Assembly (NCBI GenBank): GCA_036867785.1
Contig: CP145420.1
Location: 1,116,001 to 1,180,000 of the forward strand
Source: Plasmodiophora brassicae
Lineage: Eukaryota
Length of the DNA stretch: 64,000 bases
Reading direction: 5' to 3'
Below are positions 14,360-39,033 of the stretch, in pieces (the stretch's first letter is position 1; each line of letters begins with the position of its first letter). Both the position numbers and the translations under genes were made by a program. The notes under the pieces were generated by a model. That model searched no databases. It was given only the letters and a program-made list of their open reading frames with translations, and was not told where the DNA came from.

Positions 14360-14680
14360 TGGTTTATTTGTGTTTCGCGCTTTCACGCAGTCGCCTCGGT
14401 TTCGGGTCCGAGGACTGTATGGACAACTTGCAGCACGCAAGCAGCGTTCTCCGGCCTGGCAGTGCCGGCCTACCACCTTTTTTGGCATGTCTCCAGAAAT
14501 TTTATAAAGGATACGAAAATTCAACTAAGTGAACGTATCAACACGGGAAGGCCTGAACTTGTAGACCGGACCGCCCAACTAGGCCACGACAGCAGCTGCT
14601 CTCGTGGCCTAGTTGGGCGGTCCGGTCTACAAACTTCGTCCTCATTTTACAAACTTCCTCACAAGTCCGGTGGGCCTCCG
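14360..14680 (-). mobile_element. Degenerate LINE-like 3' end sharing its tail with the SINE
   Basis: Shares ggccggcacNgccaggccgg and cctcgg-N8-ccgagg...gcgcgaaaNacaaataaa with the SINE at 23712/29634. Upstream is a weak C..C..EDE-like remnant. Confidence 0.5.
14560..14631. mobile_element. Solo 72-bp palindromic terminus (TGTAGACCGG...CCGGTCTACA), TSD AACT
   Basis: Near-perfect palindrome flanked by aact at 14556-14559 and 14632-14635. Same unit as the ends of 49930-50251. Confidence 0.85.
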
Positions 14681-15522: not shown

Positions 15523-18500
15523 ATGGAGCTGACAAGCAGCAGCAGCAGCGGCGGCTCGACAAGCGCTACCATCGTTACGAACGCCGATGCGAGCATCCTG
15601 CCCAAGGCTAACAACCTTGACTCGACATCGATCCTGACGCTGCGCGAGGCGTACAACCGCTACGTCGCCATCTTCGAGGATCGGGAGGCGCAGCAGCCGC
15701 GGGGGCGTCGACTTCGTCCGCAAGGCATCCGGCTGTGCTTCACCGCCGTGCAGTTGAAGGCCATTGCCGAAAATCACCTGGACCTGGACGACGGCGCCGA
15801 GGCGTTGACTGACGAATTGCTGGACGGATGGATCCGAGACCAGGTCAACGCATTGCCCACCAGCCACGGGCTGCGTATTCAGGACATCGAGTCCAAGATC
15901 GCGGATGAGCTTTCGATGGATACCTCGATGTCGACCCTGCGAGATCAAATCGCGTCAATCCCGGACCAGCTGACGGCCATCCAGGACCGCCACGGTTGGA
16001 AGCTGAGCGAGACCGCCGGAGGACGCAAGGCCATGGGGCGCCTGATCGCTGACTCGCTCCAGCCCGGCTACCTCCGCGGTCACGTACAGGCATGGGTCAA
16101 GGAGGACAAGGCCGAACGTGAAGGCAATACCAGGGCGATCGTTCGCGAGGCGCAGGATTGGGCGAGGCACTTCGTCGCGATCGGACGCGCCCGCAACGCA
16201 TCGATCAAGCGTCCTCGGAAGAAGTGTTCCGAACTGCGACTCGCCGACAAGCAGAGCAAGCTGACTCCCGCTGCGACAACTTCAGGTGGACGCCGCGTAC
16301 CAGCCCATCGCCCTGTGCCCGCCAACCGGCAATCGGGCCCACATCCAGTGACCGTGAACGCTCCCAAGCGCAACCGCGAACCGACTGCGACAAGTGACAG
16401 CAGCCAGATGACGGGGACGACTGATGGCAAGCGCGACTTCAAATGCTGGCACTGCTCTGGGCCACATAAGATGTCGATGTGCCCAGAGAAGCCGACGAGA
16501 GAAAGGCGCAATGAGCTCGCACGTCATCATCGGCCCGCAGGCGGACATCATCCCGATGGACGTCGACCGATTAAAGTCGCCAAAACTCGCGCCTACACTG
16601 GGATCCAGCACGTGACACAGCAAGTAGAGATCGAGGGAAGGCGTATCCCTTATGTTCTAGACTCTGGCTGTGATGGGGGAAACCTCATACCTGAACACGT
16701 TGCGAATGAGTTGAAGGGCGCCACGTTCGAGGTTATCGAGCCCCGAGAAATCGCATCAGCCGACGACCAAGTCATTGCCGTCAGCACCCGCATCGTCACC
16801 GTTCCAGTGACGAAACTCGAAACCAAAGCTGGGAATCTCACCCTGTACCATGTTGCCTACTATGTCTGCGACGCTATTCCAGTCATCTTATTCGGCGACA
16901 CACTACTCTCTATGATCGGCATCAGTCCACGTCAGCAACTCGAGGACATGATCGCATCCGGCACCACCGAGTTTGATGCCAGACTATCTGGATGCGCCAT
17001 GTTCGATGTGGAGTCGTTCGACGCCGTCAGTGAAATCGTTGCAAGGATGGCGACGTTGAGCGGCGACACGTATCAGGCGCCACATGTACACGATGCGGCG
17101 GAACCTACCTCCAGTGATGTCGACTTAGGGCCGATCAACGTTCAAGAGATTGAGGCATCCCTCACCCGCCTGATACATCAAGCACGCCTCAACGGCATGT
17201 CTCGTCAAGGGGTTGCACGGCTACGACTCATCCTTCGACGACACGTCAACGAATTCCGCACACAGCTTGGTCAGGACGGTCCCGTCAACATCGAACCTAT
17301 GATTACCAAGCTTCAACCAGACGCCACGCCGTACCGATGCAGACCACGCTCCTACAACCCGAAGCAAAAGGAGTTCCTCGACGAGATGATCAAGATGCTG
17401 TTGGAAAACAATCTGGTCTACCTCAACATGAACTCCAGATGGGCGAGTCCCGTTCTTGTGGTCAAGAAACCGAACGGCAAGGGGTACCGCCTGTGCGTCG
17501 ATCTGCGCCAGGTGAACTCGCGTACGGTACCAACTGCTTGGCCGATGCCCAACATCGAGGCGGCTAGTCGGAAGCTGGCTGGCATGACCTGCTTCTTCAC
17601 GATCGATGCCCACAAGGGGTTCTGGCTCATGCCAATTGCGAAGGAATGCCAGGAGATCTTCTCGTTTATGACCGACGACGGCGTCTACACGCCTACCAGG
17701 AGCATTCAGGGCGCGACCAACTCTGCCTTGCAGTTCCAGGCGCGGATCGGGAAGATCTTCGACGACATGAAGGATCACCTCTTGATATGGATCGACGACC
17801 TGCTGGGATTCGCCAAAACGGAAGACATTCTACTGCATCAGCTTGCACGTGTCTTGGAGCGAGCGCGCGAACGCAACTTGAAGTTCAACCCGGACAAATG
17901 CGTCCTATTCGCTCGAGAGCTGAAGTGGTGTGGGCGCATCTACTCTCGTGATGGAATCCGACACGATCCCGAACGAATCGAGGCGCTGACCAGCATGCCG
18001 CGTCCTAACACTTTCAAAGAGCTACAGCAGTTCATCTGGGCGGCCAACTGGATGCGTACCAGTGTTCCCGGTTACGCGTACATCATCGCCCCGCTCCAGG
18101 AGCTCACGGACAAGGCGAACGAGGAGATGAAGAGAATCCAGTCTTCGTCACCTTCGTCGATTCGGTTACATGATCTTGGATGGACAGACCGGCACAGCAA
18201 GGCCTTCGAGGACATACGCTTTGCGCTGATCCAGCACGTCCAGCTCGCGTACCCGAAGTCTGATCACCAGACATGCTTGTTCACGGACGCCAGTGACCTA
18301 GCATGGGCTGCGGTCATTACCCAGATTCCGAGGGAGGATATCGACCTACCAGTTCATGAACAACGACACGAACCACTTGCTTTCTACGGCAAGCGGTTCT
18401 CTGGCGCTGAGTTGCGATGGTCAACACCGGAGAAGGAGGCAGCCGCCATCATCAAGGCGACTGAACGTGGTGACTTCCTTCTGCAGACGTCGCGTGAATT

Positions 18501-20328
18501 CCTCATGTTCTGCGACCACCGGAACCTCACGTTCATCTTCGCGAAGGACGCTGAGATGAAGAAGCACACCGCTCAGAAAATCGAGCGCTGGGCGCTACAT
18601 CTCCAAGGGTTTGATTACCGTACCAAGGAGATCTCCGGCACTGCCAACGTCTGGGCCGACCTTTTATCTCGATGGGGCGCAGGACGAATCGCACTGGCGT
18701 GCCGGGCAACGCGCATCTTGCAGATGGACGATCTTCGCGTAACGCCGATGACGCATCCCGATTTCCAATGGCCGACTGAGACCGAAATTCGCGAATCGCA
18801 AAGGCTATTGTCGCGTGAAGAGAAAATCGAGGACGGCGTGTTCTTCGATGATGACGCTCGTTTGTGGAAGTCGAAAACGAACGCCGTTCTGATCCCGATT
18901 CACAACGACTGCACCAGCTTGCGCCTACGCATCATGATCATTGGTCATTGTGCCAGTGCTGCTCATCGCGCGTACGACGTTACCAAGGAGGCAATCACAA
19001 CGCGATTCGCTTGGCCGGGCATGGACAAGGACATTCAGCAGATGTGCCAGCAGTGTCTTCATTGCATCACGACGCGGGGAGGAGCGAAGGTTCCGCGTCC
19101 GCTTGGAGAAGCGTTGCATGGCCACATTCCATTCGAGGTCCTGCACATGGATTACTTGTACGTCGAACCAGTTCGAGGAACCGATCATTCTTATAAGTAC
19201 ATCCTCGTGATGAAGGACGACTTCAGTGGTCTCGTCCGATTGATTCCATGCGCCGATGCGACCAGCCGAGTTGCGGCAGAGGCACTATTCCAATGGATTG
19301 CCGACTTCAAAACACCACAATATCTTGTCACCGATGGCGGATCTCACTTTACCGCCGAACTCATCAAGGAGCTGACCAGGCTGCGAGACGTCGAGCATCA
19401 TATAACGTTGGCGTACTGTCCATGGGCAAACGGGACTGTTGAACGCGCCAATCGCACTATCGTTGGCATCCTACGAAGCGTTCTGAGTGAGGGGCAGATC
19501 AGCACGCACAGCTGGCCCTACCTCTGCCCATTGGTGCAACACGCCATCAACCATTCGCCGAGCACACGCCTCGGAGGTTTCGCGCCGTTCACGGTCGTCA
19601 CCAAGTTGAAACCCGAGCACCCTCTGGACAACATCTGGGATCCGGCATGCAATCAGCTGCGGCCGATCTCTCCGGGATGGGTGGCGACGTACCTGTCAGC
19701 ACTGCAGACCGTTATGGACGAACTCCATAAGGTCGTCGATGAAGCCAGGGAGGCGAGGCACGCGTCCAATGTACGGCAACGCTCGCGACACGTGAGGAAG
19801 GCCCAATGCGAGTCGTTCATCCCGGGCGACTACGTCTTGAACGCGAAGCCCGTCCCCGGACCCGCACAGAAGTTGATTGCGCAGTGGCGCGGCCCCTACC
19901 GAGTTGTTCAACGCGTCAATGACCAGGTCTACGAACTCGAAGACCTGTTGACTGCACGGCGCTTCCAAGCACACACGCAACGCATCCGCCGCTATGCGGA
20001 CGCCGATCTCAACATCACCACCGAAATCAAGCAGCACCTTGAGCGGCTTGACCAGCAGTTCCACGTTGACGACCTTCTCGATTGTCGTATCGATCGCGAA
20101 ACTCAGGAGTTGCAGATCAAAGTCGCTTGGTCCGGCTTCGACCCATCTGAGGCTACTTGGGAGCCTGCAGCACTTATCACCGAAGATGTACCGCAGCTTG
20201 TGGAACAACTTATTCGGAAACTGGGCGATACTCATGCACACGTCGCTGCATTGAGGCAATTGATTCCGGCGCCGAAACGCTCTCGCACTCGGAATGCAAC
20301 ATCGCATCGAAATAAGCGACGATCTTAA
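15523..20328 (+). CDS. Gag-Pol polyprotein of Gypsy A (intact)
   Basis: Zn knuckle CWHCSGPHKMSMC, PR LDSG, RT WIDD, RNase H FTDAS, IN HHCC plus D-D-E (HMDY, VTDGG, VERAN), GPY, chromodomain VAWSGFDPSEATWEP. Confidence 0.95.
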   Translation: MELTSSSSSGGSTSATIVTNADASILPKANNLDSTSILTLREAYNRYVAIFEDREAQQPRGRRLRPQGIRLCFTAVQLKAIAENHLDLDDGAEALTDELLDGWIRDQVNALPTSHGLRIQDIESKIADELSMDTSMSTLRDQIASIPDQLTAIQDRHGWKLSETAGGRKAMGRLIADSLQPGYLRGHVQAWVKEDKAEREGNTRAIVREAQDWARHFVAIGRARNASIKRPRKKCSELRLADKQSKLTPAATTSGGRRVPAHRPVPANRQSGPHPVTVNAPKRNREPTATSDSSQMTGTTDGKRDFKCWHCSGPHKMSMCPEKPTRERRNELARHHRPAGGHHPDGRRPIKVAKTRAYTGIQHVTQQVEIEGRRIPYVLDSGCDGGNLIPEHVANELKGATFEVIEPREIASADDQVIAVSTRIVTVPVTKLETKAGNLTLYHVAYYVCDAIPVILFGDTLLSMIGISPRQQLEDMIASGTTEFDARLSGCAMFDVESFDAVSEIVARMATLSGDTYQAPHVHDAAEPTSSDVDLGPINVQEIEASLTRLIHQARLNGMSRQGVARLRLILRRHVNEFRTQLGQDGPVNIEPMITKLQPDATPYRCRPRSYNPKQKEFLDEMIKMLLENNLVYLNMNSRWASPVLVVKKPNGKGYRLCVDLRQVNSRTVPTAWPMPNIEAASRKLAGMTCFFTIDAHKGFWLMPIAKECQEIFSFMTDDGVYTPTRSIQGATNSALQFQARIGKIFDDMKDHLLIWIDDLLGFAKTEDILLHQLARVLERARERNLKFNPDKCVLFARELKWCGRIYSRDGIRHDPERIEALTSMPRPNTFKELQQFIWAANWMRTSVPGYAYIIAPLQELTDKANEEMKRIQSSSPSSIRLHDLGWTDRHSKAFEDIRFALIQHVQLAYPKSDHQTCLFTDASDLAWAAVITQIPREDIDLPVHEQRHEPLAFYGKRFSGAELRWSTPEKEAAAIIKATERGDFLLQTSREFLMFCDHRNLTFIFAKDAEMKKHTAQKIERWALHLQGFDYRTKEISGTANVWADLLSRWGAGRIALACRATRILQMDDLRVTPMTHPDFQWPTETEIRESQRLLSREEKIEDGVFFDDDARLWKSKTNAVLIPIHNDCTSLRLRIMIIGHCASAAHRAYDVTKEAITTRFAWPGMDKDIQQMCQQCLHCITTRGGAKVPRPLGEALHGHIPFEVLHMDYLYVEPVRGTDHSYKYILVMKDDFSGLVRLIPCADATSRVAAEALFQWIADFKTPQYLVTDGGSHFTAELIKELTRLRDVEHHITLAYCPWANGTVERANRTIVGILRSVLSEGQISTHSWPYLCPLVQHAINHSPSTRLGGFAPFTVVTKLKPEHPLDNIWDPACNQLRPISPGWVATYLSALQTVMDELHKVVDEAREARHASNVRQRSRHVRKAQCESFIPGDYVLNAKPVPGPAQKLIAQWRGPYRVVQRVNDQVYELEDLLTARRFQAHTQRIRRYADADLNITTEIKQHLERLDQQFHVDDLLDCRIDRETQELQIKVAWSGFDPSEATWEPAALITEDVPQLVEQLIRKLGDTHAHVAALRQLIPAPKRSRTRNATSHRNKRRS

Positions 20329-20453
20329 CCTGTACCATCACTCTGAATTAATCTCGATACCGTATCTGTTCGCGGGTGGACGATACGATGATGATCATGA
20401 TCATGGATTGGTCTCTCATGACAATCCAACCTGGTTGACGGCAACGTAACCAT

Positions 20454-20604
20454 GGTTCGACTTGGCTGGTTGCTTTGGGCACCACGGTCGGTTTGACTTG
20501 GCTGGTTGCTCGGTGCACCACGGTCAAAGTTCGGTTCGACTTGGCTGGTTGCCCACGGGACCACGGTCGATTTGACCTGGCTGGTTGCCATGTGCACCAC
20601 GGTC
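20454..20604 (+). repeat. Four ~36-bp tandem units in the 3' UTR of Gypsy A
   Basis: Approximate unit ggttYgacttggctggttgc-N6-caccacggtc, four copies. Confidence 0.85.
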
Positions 20605-21959
20605 AATGTTGTTCGATGGACTACGTGCTGTCCATCTCGCGAGGCATTCGGCAGCATCTATTAAGTTCCTCTTCACCGCAGGATTGACTCTGTCAGGGAG
20701 TACTGATGTCGAGGCTCCTGTTGCGCTGGGGGTCCACCCATGGGGGTCGGCCGCTGAGCTAGGTGAATGACACTTTCTAGATGTATATGGACCGGGCTCC
20801 ACCCATGGGGGTCGAGCGCACCATTGCTGATGTCGTCGTTTGCTACTTTGCACTCGGTCAAGGTACCTGAGGTTCTTTGATACGCTAAATCGTGTATGCA
20901 TAGGTGGAAGACGGTCTCGAAGAGGGTGTCCGTAAATGGATTTTCCACCGATTTGTCCCATGGGGTTACAAGGTGGTTTTTAGTGAGTAGTGGGTGTTCT
21001 GCACTCGAGTCTCACACTACCCTGCGTCTTCGTCCGTCATTCTCCTCTCGACTGCTCCTCTGACTCCGGTTCTGAGTTCGGGAAAAGGCAGTGTAGTCCG
21101 GGGTCCTATATTTAGCTCCTCATCACCTACGTCAGCATCAGCATCCTCCAGATATTCACATGCGCCAGAGATTCATGTGTCGAGATATGCGGGGATCGAG
21201 AGCACGCGATCACGTGCGCCGCTGGTGGGAGAGCGGGGTACGGGATCGATGGTGGATAAACGGCATTCGTCTATTGTGTCACCCGAGGCTTGACGGAAGA
21301 CACTATACCATCGATGACTAAGGGAGGAGGAGGCGGTTGCGTGTGTCCCGAAATTACGTTTGGAACGTGCGGTTCGAGCAGGGACACATGAAACACGTCA
21401 TGGATCTTCATGGCCGGCGTCAATTCGAGTTGAACGGCAACGGGGTTGACGATATGGCGGATGCGAAACGGTCCCATAAGGGGAAAGTCAAGCTTCGCTC
21501 ACGGTCGGTGCGTGGACAGTCCCTGGCGCCGCGACACGACGAAATCCCCGACGCGGTAAAGACGGTGTGGCATCCGACGTGCGTCCGCCGTCCGTTTCAT
21601 GTTGGCGATGGCCTTTTGGAGACGCGCGTGTAGCACCTGGCGGATTTGGTCCATGTGCGGGGCACGTTCCTCAGCTGACGGATTGACATGACCGGCCGCA
21701 CGGGTCGTAACTCGTATGCACGCGGATGGAATCCGTAGTTGACGTAGAACGGAGACGTGCCCGACGGAATGCTTGGCGTTGTTGTACGCGAATTCTGCCA
21801 ACGGTAAGAATCCTAGCCAGTCATTCTGCAGGTAGTTGATGAAACACCGTAGGTATTGCTCCAGGACCTGATTAACGCGCTCAGTCTGACCGTCGGACTC
21901 GGGATGTCGCGAGGAAGGCAGGTTTCGCTGCATACCTAGGCTGTGCAACTGGAATGGCA

Positions 21960-23711: not shown

Positions 23712-24199
23712 AGTTAGTTTAGTTAGTTTAGTTTTATTTGTTTTTCGCGCTTTTCTTCACGCAGGCGCCTCGGTCTCGAGTCCGAGGATCGAAGGTTCAG
23801 CAGCAGAACGCCAACATCACCCGGCCTGGCCGTGCCGGCCCGTCACCTTTGTACTGGGTTCATCGCGCCTTGGACGATATCGGAACGGGACGTGATTCGC
23901 TCAGACTTGTCGACTGCACTCTTGTCGTACCTCTTTCGCCATACCGCCTATTCCGGGGAGCCGACATACACTTGTTACGGGCCGTTCTTTTACCTTCCAG
24001 ACGCTCAAGCGAGACCCCTAATGGCTCTGGCACTTTGGGCTGCCTGATCAATAAACACATCCCTTCAACATTTACGGCTGTTGGTCACCGGGACATTTTT
24101 TGGGGGAGATCGTGCCTCGAACTGGGGACCTTGCGGTCCCACGACTGCTTGCTGACCTGCTGGTACTCCTGACCAGCTAGGTCACTGGGGCAGCGCCCC
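23712..24199 (-). mobile_element. tRNA-derived SINE, copy 1
   Basis: 13-bp TSD ggttggcctgatc. Minus-strand head has A-box-like TGACCTAGCTGG and B-box-like AGTTCGAGGC. Tail is aataaaa plus (AAACT)-type repeats. Confidence 0.85.
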
Positions 24200-24256: not shown

Positions 24257-24593
24257 ATGGTACTGGATGATGCTACAGTGTTTATCTCGCTGGCGCGTTC
24301 GGTGATCGGTGTCCCGAGGGCACGCACCTCATCTCCGTACTTTCAAAGGAAATTCAAGGCCTTTTTCGGTGTAAGTTTGCGTGCATGCCTTCGTGTCTGG
24401 CTCGATGTACGCTTTGCTGGTCCCGAGCGCCCATCCCATCAACACCTGTTCTGGGCCTTGCATATGCTGAAGCAGTATCCCTCTGAGGAGGTCGGGTGCC
24501 GCGTCTTCAGTGTGACCGAGAAGACCTTCCGACACTGGTCCTGGGTGGTTATCAAGAGGAACGCAAACCTTGACTACTTACCTGTCCGTATTG
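24257..24593 (+). pseudogene. Harbinger/ISL2EU-like transposase N-terminal fragment
   Basis: RKFKAFFGVS...HLFWALHMLKQYPSEE...EKTFRHWSWVVI resembles the HTH region upstream of DDE_Tnp_4. Cut by the Copia insertion. Confidence 0.55.
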
Positions 24594-27500
24594 TGTCAGA
24601 CTTTCGCCCAGTAGCTCCAGCTTCGATCGGGATGCCCTCGGAACATTCCGAGAGGCAACTAACCTGCGGACTGCGCGATACATAAAAATTATTTCTGGTG
24701 TTGTATTGCGTCGAGGCGGACCGTCCACTTCTGTCAGATTAACAGTCGTAAGAGGCGCTGCGATGTCGGACGGGACGGTCGATCCGGTGGGCAAGAAGGG
24801 CATGGGGTCGCTTGCCCGGATCAGGGACGCGGCCGAAGACTTCAAGGAAGCGTTCGTCACCGACACACTGGAATCACTGAGGCCCGAGCACGAGCTCGCG
24901 CGAGAGGCGGTCGTCAACAGCATCAATCGCATGGCTGTCTGCAAGCAAAATTGGACACGAGCGATGAGGGCACTGAAGCTCGAGGACGATGATGACGTTG
25001 ATGTCGTCGCTGCCATGATGCTGACCATGCGAATGACGGAGGACTGGATGGAACTTCTAGAGGACATGTACTGCGATCGCCTAGGGGTCAGGAGGAAGCG
25101 AACGCAAGCATCGGAGCGGGCGCAGGCATTGCGATCGAACCCTGAAACAGTTACGCGATGGGAAGAACTGATGTCCAAGATTACCCAGAAGGGGACGGTG
25201 ATGACGGAGGAATTCCAGATTTCGATTTTGAGGAACCGAATGTTGAGACGCTACGACTTGGATGTCAAGGACTTCGAGACTAAGGGTGAGCTGTTCAAGC
25301 ACTGCATTGCCAAGGACCCTAAAGGCATGCGATCGAGCAAGAGGGACGGCAAGAAAGAGGATGACGAAGACACGGTGATGTTCACCCTGAGGAACGGGAA
25401 GAAGGTCAACCTGGCCACCGTTAAATGTCACCGATGCAACCAGATGGGACACTTTCAATGGATGAGAGACAAGTGCAATAAGGCCGGCAGTGACGACGGC
25501 AAAAGTGAGGACGGAGAGATGTTCATGACGGTCAAGGACAAGGGCAAGTTCGACGAGGACATCTGGGTGAATGACGACGCAGCCCCGTGGCATGTTTGCA
25601 ATTCGCGGGAGGCATTCGTGGACATGGACGAATGCCAAGGCAAGGTACTGGGAGGCGACAAAGAGTATGAGGGCGCCGACATCGCGGGGATCGGGACCGT
25701 GCGCATCACGACGAAGAGCGGCAATCAGATCACGCTTAATGAGACGCGCTACGTGCCGAGCTTCAAGACCAATCTCATATCCGGTCAAAGAGTGATTGAC
25801 ATGGGATGTACAGTGAGGGGAGACAAGACAAGATTGGAGTACATGCGCAAGGGCAAAGTGGTGCTAAGCATGTCGCGATACAAAGGGTACTGGGCGCTAA
25901 GGGCAACCCCGAAACTTCAGTCGGTTCTATTCGGACAACCTGGACCGGCGGTGTCGCTGAGCACGTGGCACGAACGCTTTGGACATGCATCGTATGACAA
26001 GCTGATGAAGTTGATCAAAGAAGAATCGTGCGAGGGCCTGAACGCGTCGGACGTCAAGGCACCTGAGGGGAAGTGTGTCGATTGCTATATCGGGAAAAGC
26101 AAACGGCAAGCATTCGTGAAAGAAGGCGACGAGGCGAAGGAAATCGGAGAGGTGATACACGCGGACATCAGTGGCAAGTTCTCTGTCAGGGGACGGAGTG
26201 GGAACTGGTACTTCTCTGTACTCCGAGACAAGAAGAGTCGACATGGGTGGGTCAAGCTGATCAAGCGGAAAAGCGAAGCGGGCCAGCACTTCATGGAATT
26301 CAAGCCCTGGTTCGAGCGCCAGACGGGGAGGAAGATCAGAAGGTACGCCAACGACAAGGGAGGCGAATTCGTGTCAAAGGAACTGCGGGAGTATTTGAGC
26401 GCTGAGGGCATCGAGATTTGGGAGACCAACACTGCCACACCGAATGAGAACGGACTTGCCGAACGATACGTGGGGATGATCAAGGACATGGCGACTACGA
26501 ATCACGAACGATCAGGCCTACCGAGAATGTTCTGGGATGATGCCGTGGAACACGCTGGAGTCATCACACCACTGCTGCCGACGAACAAAGTAGAAGACGG
26601 GAAGACACCATTCGAGATCATCCACAACCGGAAGCCGCGAGTTTCACAACTGAGACCATTCGGATGTCAGGCGATCGTGTACCAGTCGAAAGACACGCGA
26701 AGGAGTTCGAGATCAAAAGCGAAGGGCATCGAAGGAGTGATGATCGGGTATGCGCCCAGCCGCCCAGGGTACAAAATCTACATCACAACGTCCAAGAAGG
26801 AAGAGACAAAGGCGAAGTTGATCATGAACGAGATGGCAATGTTCGCTGACGCCGAACCCGACGTGGGAATGCAGGACGTAATGAACGAAGTCATGTTCCA
26901 ACAGACCAAGGCGAGTGAGGTACCACTACCAACATCGTACGAAGAGGCGATCGCGAATGAGAATTGGAAAAGAGCAATCGAGGACGAGCAAGAGGCCATG
27001 AGAAACCGCGACGTGTTCCGACTGATGCCATTACCGACGGGTCGAAAGGCATTGAAATGCGACTACGTCTACAAGGCGAAAGCGAATCCTGATGGATCCG
27101 TGAGCAAGTATAAGGCGCGACTTGTTGCGAAGGGGTACGACCAGGTGAAGGTGATTGACTACGTGGACACCTTTGCACCGGTGGCAAAGCTAGCAACTCT
27201 GAGGCTGCTGATTGCGTTGAAGGTGATACGGCGGTATACCGCCTGGCAAAGGGACGTCAAAACGGCATTCCTGTACGCCGACTTGAAGGAGGACGTATAC
27301 ATCCAACAACCAAAACGCATGGAAGACGATGACCACCCGGACTGGGTGTGGAAGTTGAATAAGTCGATCTACGGCCTGAAACAAGCATCGGTCGAGTTCT
27401 ACAAGCATCTAGTGACCGCGTTCCTGAAGGGCGGATTTGAACAATGCAAGAGTGATCCGTGTCTGCTGAAGAAGGTCGACGGTGACGATGTCGTGTTCGT

Positions 27501-28625
27501 GGCGTTTCATGTCGACGACATTCCGATCGTGGGGAGCTCAACCCGGATTATGCTCGAGGCTGACCAAGTGCTGAAAGACAACTTCACGGTCGAGGAGAGC
27601 GAGTTCGAATGGATGCTGGGGATCAACATGAAGTGGTCGCCAGACGGAGGCGTGCATCTTAGCCAAGAATCGTTCGTCGAGATGCTCCTGACCAAGTTCC
27701 ATATGACCAGCGCCAAGGGTGCAAACACACCAATGCAGAAGGGCGAGACGATATCGGCACGGGGGAGCCCAAGGACCGACGATGAGCGGATAGAGTCCAA
27801 GCGGCTACCATATCGAGAGTTAGTCGGTTCCTTGTTGTATCTCACCGGTACGAGACCCGACATCGCGTTTGTGGTGGGACGACTGTGCCGTTTCATGGGC
27901 TGCTACGGCGCGAACCACTACGAGGCAGCCAAGCGAGTGCTACGGTATTTGAAGACGACGAAGGACATGGCGTTGAAATACCCTTGCTGTGAACAGAGCG
28001 AACAGCTGAAACTCATCGTGGACTCCGATCACGCAGGATGTCCCGACACCGGAAGGTCCACGACCGGGTATATGATCAAGTTTGGTGAATGCATGATCAC
28101 GTGGAAATCCGTGCTGCAGAAGACTGTGGCGCTGTCGACCACCGAGGCCGAGTACATGGCCCTATGCAGTGGGGTGCGCGAGCTATTGTGGGTGAAGCAG
28201 GTGTGTGAGTTTCTTCAGGTCAAATTTGAAGGACCGATCGCGGTGTTCACGGACAACACTGGAGCGATGGCCATTTCGAACCACCAAGGGGATGACCTGC
28301 GTGGGAGGACCAAGCATATGAACGTGCGCTACCACTTCACGAAAGAACAAGTACATGCAGGAACCATCAAGCTGCACCATGTACCGAGCACGAGGAACGT
28401 TGCGGACATCCTCACGAAGCCACTCACGAGGGATGCATTCGAGGGGCATCGTGCGAAGATCCCGATCGATTCTGCGGGGGAGTGTCAGACTTTCGCCCAG
28501 TAGCTCCAGCTTCGATCGGGATGCCCTCGGAACATTCCGAGAGGCAACTAACCTGCGGACTGCGCGATACATAAAAATTATTTCTGGTGTTGTATTGCGT
28601 CGAGGCGGACCGTCCACTTCTGTCA
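24594..28625 (+). mobile_element. Copia LTR retrotransposon
   Basis: LTRs 24594-24736 and 28483-28625 (143 bp, identical by eye), TSD TATTG, PBS gattaacagtcgta, PPT gcgggggag. Confidence 0.97.
24763..28503 (+). CDS. Copia Gag-Pol (PR-IN-RT-RH order)
   Basis: WHERFGH..C..C, IHADISG, NDKGGEF, NGLAER, YKARLVAKG, DVKTAFL, HVDD, VALSTTEAEY, ADILTKPL. The stop lies inside the 3' LTR. Confidence 0.93.
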   Translation: MSDGTVDPVGKKGMGSLARIRDAAEDFKEAFVTDTLESLRPEHELAREAVVNSINRMAVCKQNWTRAMRALKLEDDDDVDVVAAMMLTMRMTEDWMELLEDMYCDRLGVRRKRTQASERAQALRSNPETVTRWEELMSKITQKGTVMTEEFQISILRNRMLRRYDLDVKDFETKGELFKHCIAKDPKGMRSSKRDGKKEDDEDTVMFTLRNGKKVNLATVKCHRCNQMGHFQWMRDKCNKAGSDDGKSEDGEMFMTVKDKGKFDEDIWVNDDAAPWHVCNSREAFVDMDECQGKVLGGDKEYEGADIAGIGTVRITTKSGNQITLNETRYVPSFKTNLISGQRVIDMGCTVRGDKTRLEYMRKGKVVLSMSRYKGYWALRATPKLQSVLFGQPGPAVSLSTWHERFGHASYDKLMKLIKEESCEGLNASDVKAPEGKCVDCYIGKSKRQAFVKEGDEAKEIGEVIHADISGKFSVRGRSGNWYFSVLRDKKSRHGWVKLIKRKSEAGQHFMEFKPWFERQTGRKIRRYANDKGGEFVSKELREYLSAEGIEIWETNTATPNENGLAERYVGMIKDMATTNHERSGLPRMFWDDAVEHAGVITPLLPTNKVEDGKTPFEIIHNRKPRVSQLRPFGCQAIVYQSKDTRRSSRSKAKGIEGVMIGYAPSRPGYKIYITTSKKEETKAKLIMNEMAMFADAEPDVGMQDVMNEVMFQQTKASEVPLPTSYEEAIANENWKRAIEDEQEAMRNRDVFRLMPLPTGRKALKCDYVYKAKANPDGSVSKYKARLVAKGYDQVKVIDYVDTFAPVAKLATLRLLIALKVIRRYTAWQRDVKTAFLYADLKEDVYIQQPKRMEDDDHPDWVWKLNKSIYGLKQASVEFYKHLVTAFLKGGFEQCKSDPCLLKKVDGDDVVFVAFHVDDIPIVGSSTRIMLEADQVLKDNFTVEESEFEWMLGINMKWSPDGGVHLSQESFVEMLLTKFHMTSAKGANTPMQKGETISARGSPRTDDERIESKRLPYRELVGSLLYLTGTRPDIAFVVGRLCRFMGCYGANHYEAAKRVLRYLKTTKDMALKYPCCEQSEQLKLIVDSDHAGCPDTGRSTTGYMIKFGECMITWKSVLQKTVALSTTEAEYMALCSGVRELLWVKQVCEFLQVKFEGPIAVFTDNTGAMAISNHQGDDLRGRTKHMNVRYHFTKEQVHAGTIKLHHVPSTRNVADILTKPLTRDAFEGHRAKIPIDSAGECQTFAQ

Positions 28626-29148
28626 TATTGCACATCACCGTCGTCATGCTAATACTGAATGTGACCAGATTCAATGGGGTCAGCGTTTTGAGAATTGGGA
28701 CAGAAAAGTACCATCGTGCTCTGTTGACGGGGTCGATTTCTGGGTTCTGGAAAGCCACCCCTTCAGCACAGGTGACTTCTCGCATAGGCTCAAACAGGCA
28801 GCGCTGCGATACTGTGACGACCAAACACGATGAGTCAACCACACGGATTGACCGACTGAGGTCGGTCCGCGCCGTGGAAGTTTATTGTACCTAGTGCGCT
28901 ACGAAGGAGCCCAATTTAATAGTCCCCTTCTATCCGCACCGGGAACGGGCTGCGGGCTTGTCTGGGTGGAAGCGTTTGGTGAGGCTTAGCAAGAACTGCT
29001 TCATCATTAGGCGACAGTCTGTACTCCAGTCGACGAGTCAGGGCGTCAGGTTTCCAATGAACGAAATCAACTTCGCTAAGGAATTGGGGTGAATGAATCT
29101 GTCTTCGATCTAGCTTGTCGGCAAACGCACGTGCGGCGGCGTCCAGGA

Positions 29149-29459
29149 ACATCACCGACGGGAGTTCGAGCCTCCTCGAAGTCCGCCGTGGACGGAGAGT
29201 TTTGGGGAGGATGGTAGATAGTACGGACGCGCCAGGCACGAGAGCAGGTCTGCGAGTCGTCTACACGGGTAGGAGGCGGACATCGCTCGATCGTCGGGGG
29301 GGTACGAGCTTCCCCGGTGAGATGTTTTGTAGACCGGACCGCCCAACTAGGCCACGGGAGCAGCTGCTCTCGCTCTCGTGGCCTAGTTGGCGGTCCGGTC
29401 TACAAAACATCTCACCGACGGGAGTTCGAGCCTCCTCGAAGTCCGCCGTGGACGGAGAG
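29149..29459. mobile_element. Tandem fragment of the palindrome-ended element (internal - palindrome - internal)
   Basis: The internal sequence of 50000-50181 is followed by one palindrome (~29328-29404), then the internal sequence starts again. Confidence 0.85.
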
Positions 29460-29633: not shown

Positions 29634-30118
29634 AGTTAATTTAGTTTAGTTTTATTTGTTTTTCGCGCTTTTTCATGACGCAGGCGCCTCGGTCTCGAGT
29701 CCGAGGATCGAAGGTTCAGCAGCAGAACGCCAACATCACCCGGCCTGGCCGTGCCGGCCCGTCACCTTTGTACTGGGTTCATCGCGCCTTGGATGATATC
29801 GGAACGGGACGTGATTCGCTCGGACTTGTCGACTGCACTCTTGTCGTACCTCTTTCGCCATACCGCCTATGCCGGGGAGCCGACATACACTTGTTACGGG
29901 CCGTTCTTTTACCTTCCAGACGCTCAAGCGAGACCCCTAATGGCTCTGGCACTTTGGGCTGCCTGATCAGTAAACACACCCCTTCAACATTTACGGCTGT
30001 TGGTCACCGGGACATTTTTTGGGGGAGATCGTGCCTCGAACTGGGGACCTTGCGGTCCCACGACTGCTTGCTGACCTGCTGGTACTCCTGACCAGCTAGG
30101 TCACTGGGGCAGCGCCCC
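29634..30118 (-). mobile_element. tRNA-derived SINE, copy 2
   Basis: Near-identical to 23712-24199, with a different 13-bp TSD ccaggtcagggcg. Confidence 0.85.
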
Positions 30119-31369
30119 CCAGGTCAGGGCGACAATGGTTGCGAACATCAGAAGATTGAGGCTGTGACCGTCTCGGAAGCCACCATTGGAGGGAGGCGGC
30201 GGGAGCGGCGGGAGAGATCGTCTCACCCCTCATCGAACGGGGCCCCAGTTCCGGAAGGAGGACATAAGGGGCGTGGACTCGGAGCCCGAACGGGGCAATG
30301 ATAAGTGATCGGTGTGGCTGGGGGCAACAGTATCTTTGAAGGCGGCGGCCCCCGGGGAGCTACCATAATCGAAAGCGGAAGGGCTCGGCCTGTCGTCGAC
30401 GGCAGCAATGGCAATGTGGCAGTCCGGGTGGTCGTCGTTAGCTACGGAAGCCAGCTTGCCGTCGACAAACGCGGATGTAAGCGGCAACGTTTCGAGTGAT
30501 TCAGCTGAAGGGATGGCACACGCAGGCGCAGGAACGCTTCGTGAAGGAGGTGAGACCCCATCCGAGAGACTATTCCCGCGCTTCACTGTTGCAAATGGTC
30601 CCGCCGAAGAGACAAAGGACCCAGACTCATGGACGTCTCGTGTACGGCGTGACATCCCCACGAGGGTATCTCCGCGGCGCTGTAGGCGGCGCTGACGCCA
30701 ATCGATATCTGGGTTTGTATCCGCCAACCAAGGCAGCCCAAGAACGACAGGGTGTTGAGGCGAGTGGATCATGTTCAGGACGACGTCACTGTCGAAACAT
30801 CCGTCGACGGTAGCACGTAGCGGGACGGTTTCCTGAGTTACTGGAGACAGGTGTCGCCCGTCGATGACGCGAACAGGAATGGCACGCGATTTAGAGCGAA
30901 CCGGCGTTTTCAGGCAGGACGCAATAAAATGCCCAACTTCGCGATAATAGTGGCAAGCCAGGGGTTGTGCCCTTTGTGACGTCCTAACGGTGATGGTTTA
31001 TCGAACCGTGTGCGTAGTCGTCTGTGTCCTCGACCTGCAGCTCCCACGGACGCCGTGCCGACGCCGTGCGGACTCCGTGCCGACGCCGTGCGGACTCCGT
31101 GCATGTCCGTCATTCTTAGGGCGGCCAGCCGGATCACAGCTATTCTTGTCTTATAGCTTGGAGCCGGCACATTCCCCTCCTTCAAAGAAATGCTCCTCCT
31201 TGCAGGTGTCTTCAGTGGTGGTGTATCGTAATCATTTCTCCTCCTTAATATAGTCTAATTAACATAATTAAGTCTCAATCTTCGTAGAACACAGTTTTGG
31301 CTTCTGTCGTCACATGGCCATCGGCATTAAAATAACCCAGCGCGCATCCGGGAAAAAAGCATGACTAGC

Positions 31370-34300
31370 CTACTGGACTCCTTCCGCCTTAAGTAACTCC
31401 TTAACCTCATCAGCAAGGAAGTGTTTCTCCTTCCTCATCCTGGCTGCATGGGTCTTCACCATCGTTGGTACATCCTTCGCCAACCTGCAGATTGGCTCCC
31501 ATGAATTCTCAGCCTCAGAGAAGCCCTTCCATCCGATCAACAATTCCAATTCCCCTGTCTCTGGACTATGCCTGCAGTCCTTGAAGACCTCAATGGCGAA
31601 ACGCTCATTGTCATAATCCATCTGTCGCTTCAATTCCTCAGTGGCATTCAGTTTGCCATGCTCATAGAGGCGACCGCGGTCCCCGTGAACGGTTCGCGTG
31701 TCCGTCTCATTGAACATATTCCTCACCTCGTAGGTGTAGTTCTCGTGGCTATCAGTTATTTGATATAGGCCCCGCCACTTCATAAAGAGCTTCTTGCCCG
31801 GAACCTTACCCGGTTCAGGCAATCCAATAAGCACATAGTCACCGATCTGAAAGTTCGGTGCAGTTGCTCGTCGGTACGCGTCGCTCCTCTTCCTGTGTAC
31901 GGCTCGGATATTTCTCGATTGCTTCACTGCTCCCTTGTGCATTTCATTCAGCGACGTCTGCAGTTGCATGACTAGCTCCTGAATATGCTCCTTTGAGAGT
32001 GTAGCTTCCCCATACTTCTCATCCCCTGGCCTCTTGAACACTTGTTTCAGCGGGTTGTCTGGTTGACGTCCCATCATCACTGTCACCGGCGCATTCCCGT
32101 TGGTACGCGCCTGCGACCTGTGATTGATCGTGTGTTCAATGTTGTGGTTCAACCATGGCCAGTCGTGTTTGTCCCACTGCAATTCAGACAGAAGTGCTCT
32201 GACTAGTTGCAAGTAGTTCCTGTTGATCACCTCGATCGATCCATTACTGTAATGCCCATAGGCAACAGTCGGGTGATGAGCAAATCCGCATGGACGCGCC
32301 AGATCCTTTACAACGTTTGCCAAAAAGCAAGACGCCATGTCTGACACCATCAACTCAAACGTTCCGAAGATAGCCCTCCATTCGAGCAGTGCCTCTACAG
32401 TGGTTTCTGAATTGGGGATATGGTCAGGAGTAATCTTGACCATGCCAGACAGATCGTCCCTGATTATCAGGTTCCATTGCAGATCATGCCTTCCACCCTT
32501 CTCAGCCGGCATCATGTACAGCCAATCCAAGTGAATCACCTGATTCGGCCTTACACCATGAACAACAGCTGTTCCCAGTGGCCTGGGAATCCTAACCCCG
32601 CCCCTTGTCGGTAGACAGTTCAAACACGCGTTGCAGAACTTCCTCATGTCCTCATCGCAGTGAGCCCAATGGCAGAACTCCCCCAACTTCCTCAACGAGG
32701 CCTTCAGTCCTAGATGCCCACTGTTTCCGCCCGCATGAGCAATAGCGCATAGCTGCAGCTTCAGCTCGTTGCATTCGTCTAGTATGATCCCTTGTCCCTT
32801 CCCTGTGACGAAGAGATCATCACCATTCTTCGGTCGTTTCATTCCTCTGAGCCATTTCTTCTGTGCCTTACGGATTTCGTCCACGGTCGGCCATTGGAAT
32901 TCCTTCCTTTGTAACGGCCGTACCCGATATCCGTCCTCAACTTGAAGCGTAATCCTCCTGATCGTGCGTACCTCTAGGTGCTGGTCATCAGGTCCACCGT
33001 CCGGTGCACCCCACCGCGTCATCAGATCCGACCACACATTGTCCTCCCCCGCAATGTGTTCAATGACGTAGTTGACCCTCTGTATGTCCAGTGCCCATCG
33101 TTGCAGTTTCTGCGCCGTTGGCTTTGACACGTCCGTTGGTGAGAATATCCTCACGAGGTTCCTATGATCGGTGAACAGACGAAACTGCTCGTTGGTTGTA
33201 AAGAGATAGTCCAGTTTGTCAATTCCATCCTTGATCGCGAACCCTTCCTTCTCCACCGTGGACCAGTTCCGCTCTGGGCCCGCGAACTTGTGTCCGACGA
33301 AACCCAGCGGTTCATGTCGCTGCCCATGCACTGGTTTACCCAAATCCTCAGGCGGAATCTGTGTGACTACCGCCGCGCTGTTGACCTCATTTGCATCCGA
33401 AAATAGGCATTGGATCCGGTCCTTTCGCGGGTACGCTAGTTGGACCGCGTCCGCCACTGCCATCTTCAGTTTCTCGAATGCCAGCGCATGTTCGGGTGAC
33501 CATCCATATTTGCACAATCGCACCCTCCTGGCAATGGCTTTCGTCCTGCCAGGTTGGTCCCTCATCGCATCCTCATATATCCTCTGCAACAGGTGTACCT
33601 TCCTGTTGTACTCAGGGATGGACCTGCTCATCCACTGAGTTGCCATTAGGAATTGTTGAAAGTCCCTTGCTGTCCTCGGCTGTGGGATCGCCATCAAAGC
33701 TTCGATCCTCGCTGGATCGTGCCTTGCCCCTTCTGGCGTGAATATCCTCCCACAGAACCTAACCTCTGTCGTGAAGAGCTCACACTTCTCCACGTTGAAC
33801 TTGATGTTATGCCGTTCGGCTAGCATCAGAGTTCGTTCCAACGTTCGGAACCAATCATCCTCCCTCTGGGCATGCCCCATTAGATCATCGATCCATATGA
33901 TTAGTTTGTGAAACATCAGTTCCCCGAACACCTCAAACATCCTCCCTTGATACTGAGGGGCGGAGTTCATTCCCCCCTGCATCGACCTCGTTGGCTTATA
34001 CACCCCCTTATCTGTCATGAAGGAGAAGATCTCCTGACACGCTTCATCCAGCGGCATCATCCAGAAGCCTTTGAACGCGTCTAGCTTAAACCAGAACCTC
34101 GAGCCTGCCAGGTTCCTCAGTATCGCCTCCTGATGTGGCATAAGCCACGCCACGGCGACACATTTGGCATTAACAGCTCTGAGATCAACACAGAACCGCT
34201 TTCCGCCCCCTGGCTTCGTCACCACCACCACCGGTGAAGCCCACTTCGCGTTGTAGTTTTCAACGACGAGGCCGTACTTCTTCAATTGGGCAACGAATTC

Positions 34301-34654
34301 CTCCATGAAAGCACTGTCCTCCATACTGTACTTTCTGGCTCGGCACCTGTAAGGTTCCGCCTCTGGTTTCAGCTCCGTGACAAATGGTGTAACCCTGGCT
34401 GGACCATCGGGTCCAACGCTCATACGCCAAACGTCCCTGTACCTCTTGACGAGCTTCCGCAGCGATTTTGCCATCGCCTGCGGTAGGCCATTCCTCAATG
34501 CGCGCTCGACCATCCCGTCCATCTCCCTTTCCAGGGAGTCTGTGGAATCTGCCCCGATCCTCACATCCTCTGTTTCCTCTTCCTCCCCTTCCCAGAGAGG
34601 TGGCACCTCATTTGCCATATTGTGCACTTCATCCATGACGTCATTCCCCTTCAT
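31370..34654 (-). CDS. Gypsy B RT-RNase H-integrase-chromodomain
   Basis: WIDD, FSDAN, HAGGNSGH...CNAC, HLDWLY, VSD, SIEVIN, GWKGFSEAENSWEP. Confidence 0.9.
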   Translation of the reverse strand: MKGNDVMDEVHNMANEVPPLWEGEEEETEDVRIGADSTDSLEREMDGMVERALRNGLPQAMAKSLRKLVKRYRDVWRMSVGPDGPARVTPFVTELKPEAEPYRCRARKYSMEDSAFMEEFVAQLKKYGLVVENYNAKWASPVVVVTKPGGGKRFCVDLRAVNAKCVAVAWLMPHQEAILRNLAGSRFWFKLDAFKGFWMMPLDEACQEIFSFMTDKGVYKPTRSMQGGMNSAPQYQGRMFEVFGELMFHKLIIWIDDLMGHAQREDDWFRTLERTLMLAERHNIKFNVEKCELFTTEVRFCGRIFTPEGARHDPARIEALMAIPQPRTARDFQQFLMATQWMSRSIPEYNRKVHLLQRIYEDAMRDQPGRTKAIARRVRLCKYGWSPEHALAFEKLKMAVADAVQLAYPRKDRIQCLFSDANEVNSAAVVTQIPPEDLGKPVHGQRHEPLGFVGHKFAGPERNWSTVEKEGFAIKDGIDKLDYLFTTNEQFRLFTDHRNLVRIFSPTDVSKPTAQKLQRWALDIQRVNYVIEHIAGEDNVWSDLMTRWGAPDGGPDDQHLEVRTIRRITLQVEDGYRVRPLQRKEFQWPTVDEIRKAQKKWLRGMKRPKNGDDLFVTGKGQGIILDECNELKLQLCAIAHAGGNSGHLGLKASLRKLGEFCHWAHCDEDMRKFCNACLNCLPTRGGVRIPRPLGTAVVHGVRPNQVIHLDWLYMMPAEKGGRHDLQWNLIIRDDLSGMVKITPDHIPNSETTVEALLEWRAIFGTFELMVSDMASCFLANVVKDLARPCGFAHHPTVAYGHYSNGSIEVINRNYLQLVRALLSELQWDKHDWPWLNHNIEHTINHRSQARTNGNAPVTVMMGRQPDNPLKQVFKRPGDEKYGEATLSKEHIQELVMQLQTSLNEMHKGAVKQSRNIRAVHRKRSDAYRRATAPNFQIGDYVLIGLPEPGKVPGKKLFMKWRGLYQITDSHENYTYEVRNMFNETDTRTVHGDRGRLYEHGKLNATEELKRQMDYDNERFAIEVFKDCRHSPETGELELLIGWKGFSEAENSWEPICRLAKDVPTMVKTHAARMRKEKHFLADEVKELLKAEGVQ

Positions 34655-36054
34655 CGGCGTGTGCTCTTAATGAGTACGTCCAGGGCCTTCTTTGGGTGGA
34701 TACCCAAGTCGTCAAGCAGCCTCAAACCTAGGATAATTTCCTTTTCAGGAATGTCCCATACGAGGCATCGGCGCCGGCGAGTGATCAGTTCGCCTGCCGT
34801 CGTCTTCAGTCCCAGATCCAGTGTCATCAGATGGTAGGCTGTGTGCTTCGTTTCTCTGTCTACCAAACAGAACGTTTCCGGCTTCTGGAGTTTCTCCATT
34901 GTTAACAATGGGTCCCTTTCCATCAGCTCGCGCGCTATGGTCAATGGCATCAGAACATCAACCGATGTCGCTCCACTGTCCAGAAAAGTCCCAACGTAGT
35001 CTTCCTCATGTCCGTTAATACGAACGACTACTTGGCCCCCTGTCCTCCGCGCCTCCTCTGACACCCTTCCTACCACTGGAATCCATGGGTACTCCGATAG
35101 GTCCTCTTTATCAGATTCCTGAATCCCTCTGGCCCTACGGGATCCATCCCTTCCCGTTGGCACCTTGCGGCGATCCTTCAGCAGGTCTGCAACCTGTTTC
35201 TTTGTAGGCTTCTTCGGGCAACGAAACGCTGGATGCCCAACCTCCTCGCAATTGAAGCATCGCAGGTCCTTCCGGTGTCGTTTCGTGTCCCGGCCTCCAT
35301 CGCCTCCGTCATCCGTCTGCGCCCCTCGCTTCTTCGAGGTGGGTTTGACCTTTCCCTTCCCCTTGCCGTCCTCCCGTCCCGGCTCCGCGTACAACATCGT
35401 CTCCTCATACGATGCTGCACGCTCCTTAAGGACTCGATAGAACTCCATCGGGTCCTTCTGGAGCTCGGTCTGGCGCTTCATGACGAGGGTCCGCATGAGC
35501 GCTTGCAAACCGGATGGGCGCACAGCACCCAATAGGTACTTGACCAGGTTCTTCCGTCCCTCGCGGGACGTGAAAAGGTCCTGCCACCCGTTGCGCGCGA
35601 CCAATTCCTCGTACTGCTGCACGAGGTTCACGACCCTTGCCGCCGGTGTGGTGATGGTAAGCTTCATCGCCAGCTTGCGCATCTCCCGGTCGATGTTCGC
35701 GTCCGTCGAGCGATCCTGTTCCAGATGCCTCTTCATCCAGTCCATCAGGTCGCTCTCCGTCACCCTCTCGGCGTCCTTGCCGAGTTCCCACGTGCAGATC
35801 GCCCTGAGCAGACCGGGGTCGATCATACTCTTCACTGATCGCGGGATCTGGCCCTTGGCGTTCGGATCGTCCCGGAAGTGATTCCGATACGTCTTCAGCT
35901 CGGCCATGAACGTCGTGACGGTTTTGCGGTCCATGCTCTTCAAGGTCGGCGCCTTGTTCATCTGCAGGACGATCGTTGAGCCTTGCACGCTCCGTCCTTG
36001 TTGTCGATCGTCGACGTCATCTTCCAACAGCATCTCCTGCGCGGTGGTCACCAT
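34651..36054 (-). CDS. Gypsy B Gag-protease
   Basis: CFNCEEVGHPAFRC zinc knuckle and FLDSGA. Confidence 0.85.
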   Translation of the reverse strand: MVTTAQEMLLEDDVDDRQQGRSVQGSTIVLQMNKAPTLKSMDRKTVTTFMAELKTYRNHFRDDPNAKGQIPRSVKSMIDPGLLRAICTWELGKDAERVTESDLMDWMKRHLEQDRSTDANIDREMRKLAMKLTITTPAARVVNLVQQYEELVARNGWQDLFTSREGRKNLVKYLLGAVRPSGLQALMRTLVMKRQTELQKDPMEFYRVLKERAASYEETMLYAEPGREDGKGKGKVKPTSKKRGAQTDDGGDGGRDTKRHRKDLRCFNCEEVGHPAFRCPKKPTKKQVADLLKDRRKVPTGRDGSRRARGIQESDKEDLSEYPWIPVVGRVSEEARRTGGQVVVRINGHEEDYVGTFLDSGATSVDVLMPLTIARELMERDPLLTMEKLQKPETFCLVDRETKHTAYHLMTLDLGLKTTAGELITRRRRCLVWDIPEKEIILGLRLLDDLGIHPKKALDVLIKSTRR

Positions 36055-36894: not shown

Positions 36895-37839
36895 TGTCGA
36901 GGATCATGTCGTACCACCGGCACACGGTGATGCCGTGACAGTGAGCGACTGCGTAACGTCCACGGCACAGGCTCCGCCACCGACGCAGTTGTCGGTAACG
37001 GCTTGGCAAGCCCCTGTTACATAGCGCTACGTCGTCGCCGTCTCACGCCGATGTCGGTCGGAATAAATCACTTCGTTATCGTCTTCATTAGATTAACAGT
37101 CGTACGCGTTCTACGCGCTTCGAGGCGGCGAGCCCACCGGCGCCCTGCGCGCCGGTGCCATCCAGTGCCAGTCCCGCGTCATTGCGTCTCTGCCCTGACC
37201 CTGCTTCTGCACAACGCGCCACGAACGCCCGCTCGAGTCCGCGCCACGCGCAAGAGAGTCCAGGCAGATCGCGCCAGCAAGGCAGGCCGTCATTAAGGGG
37301 ATCCAGAACCAGTACCTGGACGTAAGCGCCAGGCGTACGCCGGTCGTACGGGCCTCAATCGCTTGCCTCAATCGCTTCGCAAGATAACGTTGTCCGTCGG
37401 CGCCATCCGCGTCGACGTCGTCCTGAGCCAGATCCAACACCCTGCGTTGTCTCGTCGACCCCGCCTCAGCAATCGTGCCATTCGTGTCACCTCTAGCCAC
37501 GGTCCGTCTCGCGCCGCGTCAACGAGCCAAGGCCTATGAGCACGTGCAAGGCAGTGTTGTTCATGATCCAGAGTCAAGGGTCCAGCCGGGACATATCCGT
37601 TCGACCGTCTTCCGCATGCAACCGCGTGCCGTTGGAGGGGGCGTGTCGAGGATCATGTCGTACCACCGGCACACGGTGACGCCGTGACAGTGCGCGACTG
37701 CGTAACGTCCACGGCAGAGGCTCCGTCACTGACGCAGTTGTCGGTAACGGCTTGGCAAGCCCCTGTTACATAGCGCTACGTCGTCGCCGTCTCACGCCGA
37801 TGTCGGTCGGAATAAATCACTTCGTTATCGTCTTCATTA
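36895..37839 (+). mobile_element. TRIM-like non-autonomous Copia-type element
   Basis: 196-bp LTRs at 36895-37090 and 37644-37839, PBS gattaacagtcgtacgcg (same core as the Copia), PPT ggagggggcg, flanked by GAGA. No recognisable coding region. Confidence 0.88.
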
Positions 37840-38838: not shown

Positions 38839-39033
38839 TGATGAAGACGATAACGAAGTGATTTATTCCACTGACATCGGCGCGAGACGATGGCGACGTA
38901 ACGCAGTGTAACAGGGCTTGCCAAAGCCGTTACCGGCAACGGCGACGGTGGCGGAGCCTCTGTTGTGGACGTGACACAGCCGCGCACAGTCACAGCGTCA
39001 TCGTGTGCCGGTGGTAGGACATGGTCCTCGACA
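38839..39033 (-). mobile_element. Solo LTR related to the TRIM LTR
   Basis: TG..CA ends, TSD GATAC. The reverse complement aligns to 36895-37090. Confidence 0.88.

Follow-up and report, generated by a model that had tools for sequence, protein, structure and literature searches.

A Ty1/Copia retrotransposon and a short element with LTRs but no coding capacity (TRIM), both from the clubroot pathogen Plasmodiophora brassicae, probably possess a site at which a 3'-truncated ('half') tRNA-Asn(GUU) binds as primer, as judged from the complementarity of the bases next to their 5' LTRs. In the Copia element, the predicted site GATTAACAGTCGTA (24737..24750, + strand) begins with the first base after the LTR and is antisense to standard positions 27-40 of tRNA-Asn(GUU), and in the TRIM the predicted site GATTAACAGTCGTACGCG (37091..37108, + strand) is antisense to standard positions 23-40. 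All coordinates refer to the window, i.e., the whole stretch of 64,000 nucleotides analysed here (contig CP145420.1, positions 1,116,001 to 1,180,000 of the forward strand). Direct comparison of the sequences shows the sites, where they are placed, that they pair exactly with tRNA-Asn genes of the eukaryote type, and that their register is the one of published half-tRNA sites.

The Copia element, the TRIM and their surroundings

The window is G+C-rich overall and eukaryotic in character. Its first 12 kb have a G+C content of 63-67% and contain ordinary genes, e.g., for a kinesin; beyond them, the G+C content is ~54% in a stretch that is dense in LTR retrotransposons. The Copia element (24594-28625, + strand) exhibits LTRs with TG..CA ends, a target site duplication, a polypurine tract and one open frame. 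Its 5' LTR (TGTCAG...CTGTCA, 143 nt, 24594..24736) is identical at 143/143 positions to the 3' LTR (28483..28625), which is adjoined by the polypurine tract GCGGGGGAG as read from the sequence (28474..28482), and the duplicated TATTG is located at 24589..24593 on the left and at 28626..28630 on the right side, all on the + strand. The gag-pol reading frame (24763..28503, + strand, ATG at 24763) extends over 1246 aa without interruption, and Pfam revealed the domains gag_pre-integrs (residues 461-509), SH3_retrovirus (684-754) and RVT_2 (813-1055, 2e-55) as well as Pol_BBD. As gag_pre-integrs and SH3_retrovirus, the domains on the integrase side, precede RVT_2, integrase is encoded before reverse transcriptase, which is the Copia order. 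On the basis of the domains, their order and the 5-bp duplication the element is a Ty1/Copia LTR retrotransposon. Identical LTRs and an open frame identify it as recently active, and with all 143 LTR positions conserved and the frame intact its primer site has been used recently as well. A second copy of the protein, named as originating from Plasmodiophora brassicae, is 96% identical; the next relatives outside the host are only ~35% identical, and a search for relatives in viral contigs yielded none. The sequencing runs in which the unique part of the window occurs bear the label of one organism or of plant metagenomes, in keeping with a parasite of plant roots.

The Copia element is bracketed by two copies of a ~485-bp repeat (23716-24199 and 29634-30118) that are 98% identical to each other. 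Nesting of the Copia element in an outer LTR element was considered and rejected, because a different 13-bp duplication flanks each of the repeat copies (GGTTGGCCTGATC and CCAGGTCAGGGCG, respectively) and they are therefore separate insertions. When read on the minus strand, one end of the repeat consists of a TAAAC/TAACT-like simple repeat, and the repeat has the appearance of a SINE or some other retroposon of the non-LTR type. Palindromic MITE-like repeats of ~70-80 nt (TGTAGACCGGACCGCCC...) are present at 14559-14633, 29327-29406, 49930-49999 and 50182-50251. An Rfam match to mir-187 at 29325-29404 (34.7 bits, gathering score 58) corresponds to one of these hairpins and not to a microRNA.

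The second element (36895-37839, + strand) comprises 945 bp with an internal part of 553 nt. Its 5' LTR (TGTCGAGG...CTTCATTA, 196 nt, 36895..37090) and its 3' LTR (37644..37839) are identical at 191/196 positions, and a polypurine-rich, in fact G-rich, tract GGAGGGGGCG (37634..37643) adjoins the latter, all on the + strand. GAGA is found on either side of the element. A solo LTR of the same family (38839..39033, - strand, ~86% identical, ending in ...CATCA) is flanked on both sides by GTATC, and this clean 5-bp duplication confirms the end of the TRIM LTR, fixing it at the base that precedes the primer site motif. Among 13 stop-free frames of at least 60 aa overlapping the element, the five longest, which are solely or mostly internal, did not match any Pfam family at E<=0.01. 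With a size below ~1 kb, two LTRs, a primer site, a polypurine tract and no coding capacity, the element is a TRIM. A tRNA-derived pol III promoter sequence within the LTR, the hallmark of Helenus elements, was not detected in it (ARAGORN called 0 genes in the window, and Rfam at E<=1 gave no tRNA match in 36895-37839). Just upstream, the stretch 36676-36870 is 86% identical to 57187-57375, a region at the left LTR copy of chromovirus B and immediately beyond it, such that the TRIM lies beside, or is inserted into, an older gypsy copy.

The related chromoviruses A (15247-21307, + strand) and B (56991-63029, - strand) encode proteins of 1634-1636 aa with chromodomains. In chromovirus A the LTR is followed by G and TGGCCACTACG, which could be a site of the tRNA 3'-end type; in chromovirus B, the LTRs of which are identical at 217/217 positions, it is followed by G and TGCGCACTACG, with two bases swapped relative to A. 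The notion that no LTR element of the window uses a TGG site was dropped, since gypsy element A has G and TGGCC... after its LTR. A further gypsy/chromovirus (44183-49849, + strand; 96-nt LTRs, SH3_Tf2-1 domain and chromodomain) continues after its 5' LTR with GTTTGACCGACC..., including the 9 nt TTGACCGAC that can pair with its own LTR at position 64, and it may be self-priming in a Tf1-like manner. In gypsy element C (30972-36276, - strand) the 5' LTR is followed by GAGATCTCTTGAACATCC, which lacks TGG and, read by eye, might correspond to the antisense of an anticodon loop that has CAA as its anticodon.

The shared junction motif and its match to tRNA-Asn

Two copies of the 14-mer GATTAACAGTCGTA are present in the window (24737-24750 and 37091-37104), on the + strand in both cases, and not a single further site was found in the window when up to two mismatches were allowed. 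In 100 shuffles searched with at most two mismatches, the mean number of matches was 0.27 and at least two matches occurred in 3/100, a statistic that addresses a different question than an exact 14-mer placed at two LTR junctions. In the Copia element as well as in the TRIM, the motif starts with the first base past the 5' LTR, the limits of which were fixed independently. The position directly next to both 5' LTRs, which had been pointed out in the initial annotation, was thereby confirmed, and an exact 14-mer at two defined LTR junctions is not a chance event. Within the window, the Copia element and the TRIM are the two elements that have the site, while the solo LTR of the TRIM family has no primer site. 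Outside the site the LTRs are dissimilar, as had also been noted before: their global alignment gave a score of -25 compared with -33.9 +/- 5.4 for 200 shuffles, and the single BLAST match between the two elements at E<1 is a 15-nt segment, the only one in common, that consists of the final LTR base and the motif. The LTRs belong to unrelated families.

To trace the motif in tRNA genes, the reverse complement of the 18 nt from the TRIM was scanned in public metagenome contigs, with genes called by ARAGORN. Seven loci were obtained, four of them (4/7) within ARAGORN tRNA-Asn(gtt) genes. Another locus (L005) is cut by the contig end and appears tRNA-Asn-like when read by eye, without an ARAGORN call, and the remaining two (L001 and L006) are not associated with a tRNA and look like chance matches. 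The tRNA-Asn genes at loci L003, L004 and L007 have one common sequence of eukaryotic nuclear appearance. A second query, the 17-nt anticodon arm with the closing stem completed by inference, was searched in viral contigs and gave 63 loci, 53 of which lie in tRNA-Asn(gtt) genes, three in intron-type 'Ile(aat)' calls and seven in an uncalled but tRNA-like context. These contexts establish the sequence as diagnostic of the tRNA-Asn anticodon arm.

Relative to the L004 gene, the Copia site pairs exactly with index 28-41 (standard positions 27-40) and the TRIM site exactly with index 24-41 (standard positions 23-40), and the complement occupies the same positions in the genes of L003, L004 and L007. 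In both elements the pairing ends precisely at the LTR edge. The match to the tRNA arm is longer in the TRIM (18 nt, 37091-37108) than in the Copia element (14 nt); the four additional bases correspond to the D-stem and position 26 of tRNA-Asn and are an independent sign of a tRNA template. Taken together, the matches to tRNA-Asn genes and the stop at the LTR edge support the earlier proposal that the site is the antisense of the tRNA-Asn(GUU) anticodon arm, ending four bases past the anticodon.

A better fit to the 3' end of some other tRNA, which would have spoken against this proposal, was not found. TGG does not follow the 5' LTR in either the Copia element or the TRIM, which excludes the 3' end of a mature tRNA as the primer. 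Self-priming was likewise rejected, as no stretch of at least 7 nt of either site is complementary to the element's own LTR, and between the Copia LTR and the ATG at 24763 no other candidate primer site is present. Judged by sequence features, i.e., a site antisense to the anticodon stem-loop, an end near position 40 and no complement to a CCA end, both elements would fall into the half-tRNA class. The shared 14-mer could in principle also be a packaging or dimerisation signal or the remnant of a recombination event, and a short hairpin (CGCG TTCTA CGCG) that overlaps the TRIM site would fit such a role. The position next to the LTR, the exact identity with a tRNA arm, the agreement with the published half-tRNA register and the fact that the Copia leader offers no alternative primer site nevertheless render a function other than priming hardly credible.

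Host tRNA-Asn and the proposed priming mechanism

For a comparison with the host, contigs of four DNA runs from the host species (X3, X5, X6 and X13) were aligned to the L004 tRNA-Asn gene, which yields counts of differences rather than letters. The runs X6, X13 and X3 each contain a contig of 74-75 nt with a word depth of 319-992. Such a short, deep contig of 74-75 nt is the signature of a multicopy gene with differing flanks and is tRNA-Asn-like. It differs from index 7-63 of L004 at 6/57 letters without gaps, the places of the differences being available as counts, and continues beyond index 63 with 12 letters that were read as the rest of the T stem and the acceptor stem. By subtraction, the pieces from X5 assign two differences to index 7-29 and four to index 30-59. 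Because the 12-letter 3' tail must pair with it, at least two of these four fall in the T stem. It follows from the counts by segment that the 18-nt target in the host could hold 0 to 4 differences. The D loop varies already among the metagenome tRNA-Asn genes and could absorb the two differences in index 7-29, and there is a slight hint that at index 29 the major host form has the same letter as the reference (from a 30-letter overlap in X5 and a minor piece with one additional difference, assuming assembler words of 31 letters). The counts would therefore fit an identical anticodon arm, a compatibility that falls short of proof of an exact host match.

The same counts can be turned around to argue that the site is of the tRNA-Asn type but mirrors the tRNA of another organism, the elements having been acquired horizontally and the tRNA-Asn of the host matching imperfectly. 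Compared with the metagenome tRNA that fits the sites, the host contig does show 6 differences over 57 aligned positions, with up to four differences possible in the 18-nt target, and nearest non-host relatives that are ~35% identical place the Copia element in an isolated lineage. On the other hand, differences in the D-loop and T-stem can account for those counted in the host, and identical Copia LTRs, a protein copy with 96% identity, the TRIM and the solo LTR testify that the family has cycled in this genome. In each replication cycle of an LTR element, the site receives a copy of a portion of the primer. Mismatches to the host tRNA should for that reason not persist, and a foreign template is considered unlikely.

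Still less probable is a primer with the same arm that is not cytosolic tRNA-Asn, e.g., an organellar tRNA-Asn or the transcript of a tRNA-derived repeat. A candidate for such an RNA is a second, low-depth type of contig in X6 and X13, with A+T-rich flanks, that covers index 19-59 with 8 other letters. This type is, however, more diverged and ~35 to 165 times below the depth of the main contig in the same runs. Furthermore, the four extra bases of the TRIM site fit the G+C D-stem of a nuclear-type tRNA, and neither ARAGORN nor Rfam detected a tRNA gene or tRNA-like repeat in the window, so that we regard an RNA of this kind as a very improbable primer.

With cytosolic tRNA-Asn of the host as the preferred primer, we infer cleavage, priming and mobilisation in trans as follows. 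A cut behind standard position 40, in the 3' strand of the anticodon stem, would leave a 5' fragment of the tRNA. With its newly formed 3' end, this fragment would anneal beside U5, over 14 nt in the Copia element and over 18 nt in the TRIM, and the Copia reverse transcriptase would extend the fragment into the LTR, giving rise to minus-strand strong-stop DNA. The TRIM would be copied in trans by the Copia element at 24594-28625 or a close relative, which would explain why it keeps the same primer site despite different LTRs. Copying by this element or a relative is probable, since the TRIM lacks coding capacity, shares the site of the Copia element, has LTR tips (TGTC...) resembling those of the latter and, as documented by the solo LTR of its family, likewise gives a 5-bp duplication.

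Comparison with known half-tRNA primed elements

In the initial annotation, tRNA-Asn had been regarded as an undescribed half-primer. This is not correct. Section 3.6 of Kojima 2024 (PMC10886601) reports that tRNA-Asn-GTT was chosen once as a primer in the Helenus TRIMs of fungi, and eight internal sequences from Puccinia and Uromyces in its DataS1 agree, starting with (c)GATTAACAGTCGAA or caATTAACAGTCGAA (Helenus-3_PGr, Helenus-2B_PSt, LTR-2_PSt, Helenus-3/9/9B_PHord, Helenus-4_PHor and Helenus-2_UVF). According to the same section, the anticodon loop of a tRNA serves as primer for the majority of Helenus TRIMs in fungi and for the Copia elements that are their partners, and 5-bp duplications are formed. 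Its primer lists first name Tyr, Ile, Asp and iMet and later Asn-GTT, Ile-AAT, Tyr-GTA and iMet-CAT; it may be that 'Asp' was written in error for Asn, and the DataS1 sequences support Asn. The register proposed for the sites in Plasmodiophora brassicae is borne out by the internal starts of iMet-type (ggttatgagccc) and Asn-type ((c)gattaacagtcgaa) Helenus elements given there.

As far as they are described in that source, the Asn-type Helenus elements of rust fungi resemble the elements analysed here in that the same arm of tRNA-Asn(GTT) is addressed in the same register. They, too, are LTR elements that do not code for proteins, have 5-bp duplications and are thought to be moved by Copia partners with different LTRs (PMC10886601). 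There are also differences. In Helenus, the LTRs include a tRNA-like sequence of the pol III type, whereas ARAGORN and Rfam found none in the TRIM; the hosts are fungi in one case and a rhizarian protist in the other; and the sites are one stem base apart, reading ..GTCGTA in Plasmodiophora brassicae and ..GTCGAA in Helenus. A difference of one base is expected if each site follows the stem of its own host. In addition, an autonomous Asn-type Copia element is present here, while Copia-6_PHord, possibly the same thing, is listed in PMC10886601 as 'tRNA-Asp'.

A full-text search of the literature for the sequence strings of the site gave no match, and a search for primer sites of LTR or Copia elements from Plasmodiophora found no report among the papers listed. 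The present case is probably the first one of a tRNA-Asn half-primer noted in a rhizarian, and the host lineage and the intact autonomous Asn-type partner may be new. With regard to origin, we lean slightly towards recruitment of the tRNA-Asn 5' half by a rhizarian Copia element independently of the rust-fungus elements, a TRIM being taken along; the contrast of ..GTCGTA with ..GTCGAA fits sites that each track their own host tRNA. Transfer of an Asn-primed Copia element between the two lineages of plant biotrophs is, by comparison, highly unlikely. If recruitment was indeed independent, tRNA fragments ending at position 40 would form a pool of primers common to eukaryotes in general, and Copia reverse transcriptases would switch freely within it. 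The present case extends the short list of putative users of a cut tRNA-Asn by a second, distant lineage of hosts and by an autonomous element that appears to be intact. For practical purposes, annotation pipelines that seek only complements of tRNA 3' ends will miss such primer sites, and a common site offers a simple means of matching TRIMs to autonomous partners in this genome.

The best-known parallels are copia from Drosophila and Ty5 from yeast, for which priming from the anticodon arm of initiator tRNA-Met is described in the parts of PMC5371799 and PMC10886601 that bear on them. They likewise belong to the Copia superfamily, and their site beside U5 forms the antisense of the anticodon arm, with its end four bases past the anticodon; they use tRNA-iMet in place of the tRNA-Asn predicted here. 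Further half-tRNA lineages are found among plant Copia elements, with Osser, Bryco and Gymco-II assigned to 1/2 tRNA-Met and Bianca to 1/2 tRNA-Ile (PMC6317226), and among fungal ones, with an internal tRNA-Lys site in FunCo1 (PMC5445492) and Tyr, Ile and iMet anticodon-arm primers in Copia families of Puccinia (PMC10886601). In the portion of the plant survey that deals with primer types, tRNA-Asn is listed only among the 3'-end primers, with 2% of the elements (PMC6317226). For an autonomous element, tRNA-Asn is not reported for these plant and fungal half-tRNA lineages in the sections of the sources cited, whereas it is the predicted primer of the Copia element described here. The plant and fungal half-tRNA lineages show that Copia elements switch among anticodon-arm primers, and the sites in Plasmodiophora brassicae support anticodon-arm priming as a flexible and recurrent Copia trait rather than a peculiarity of initiator tRNA-Met.
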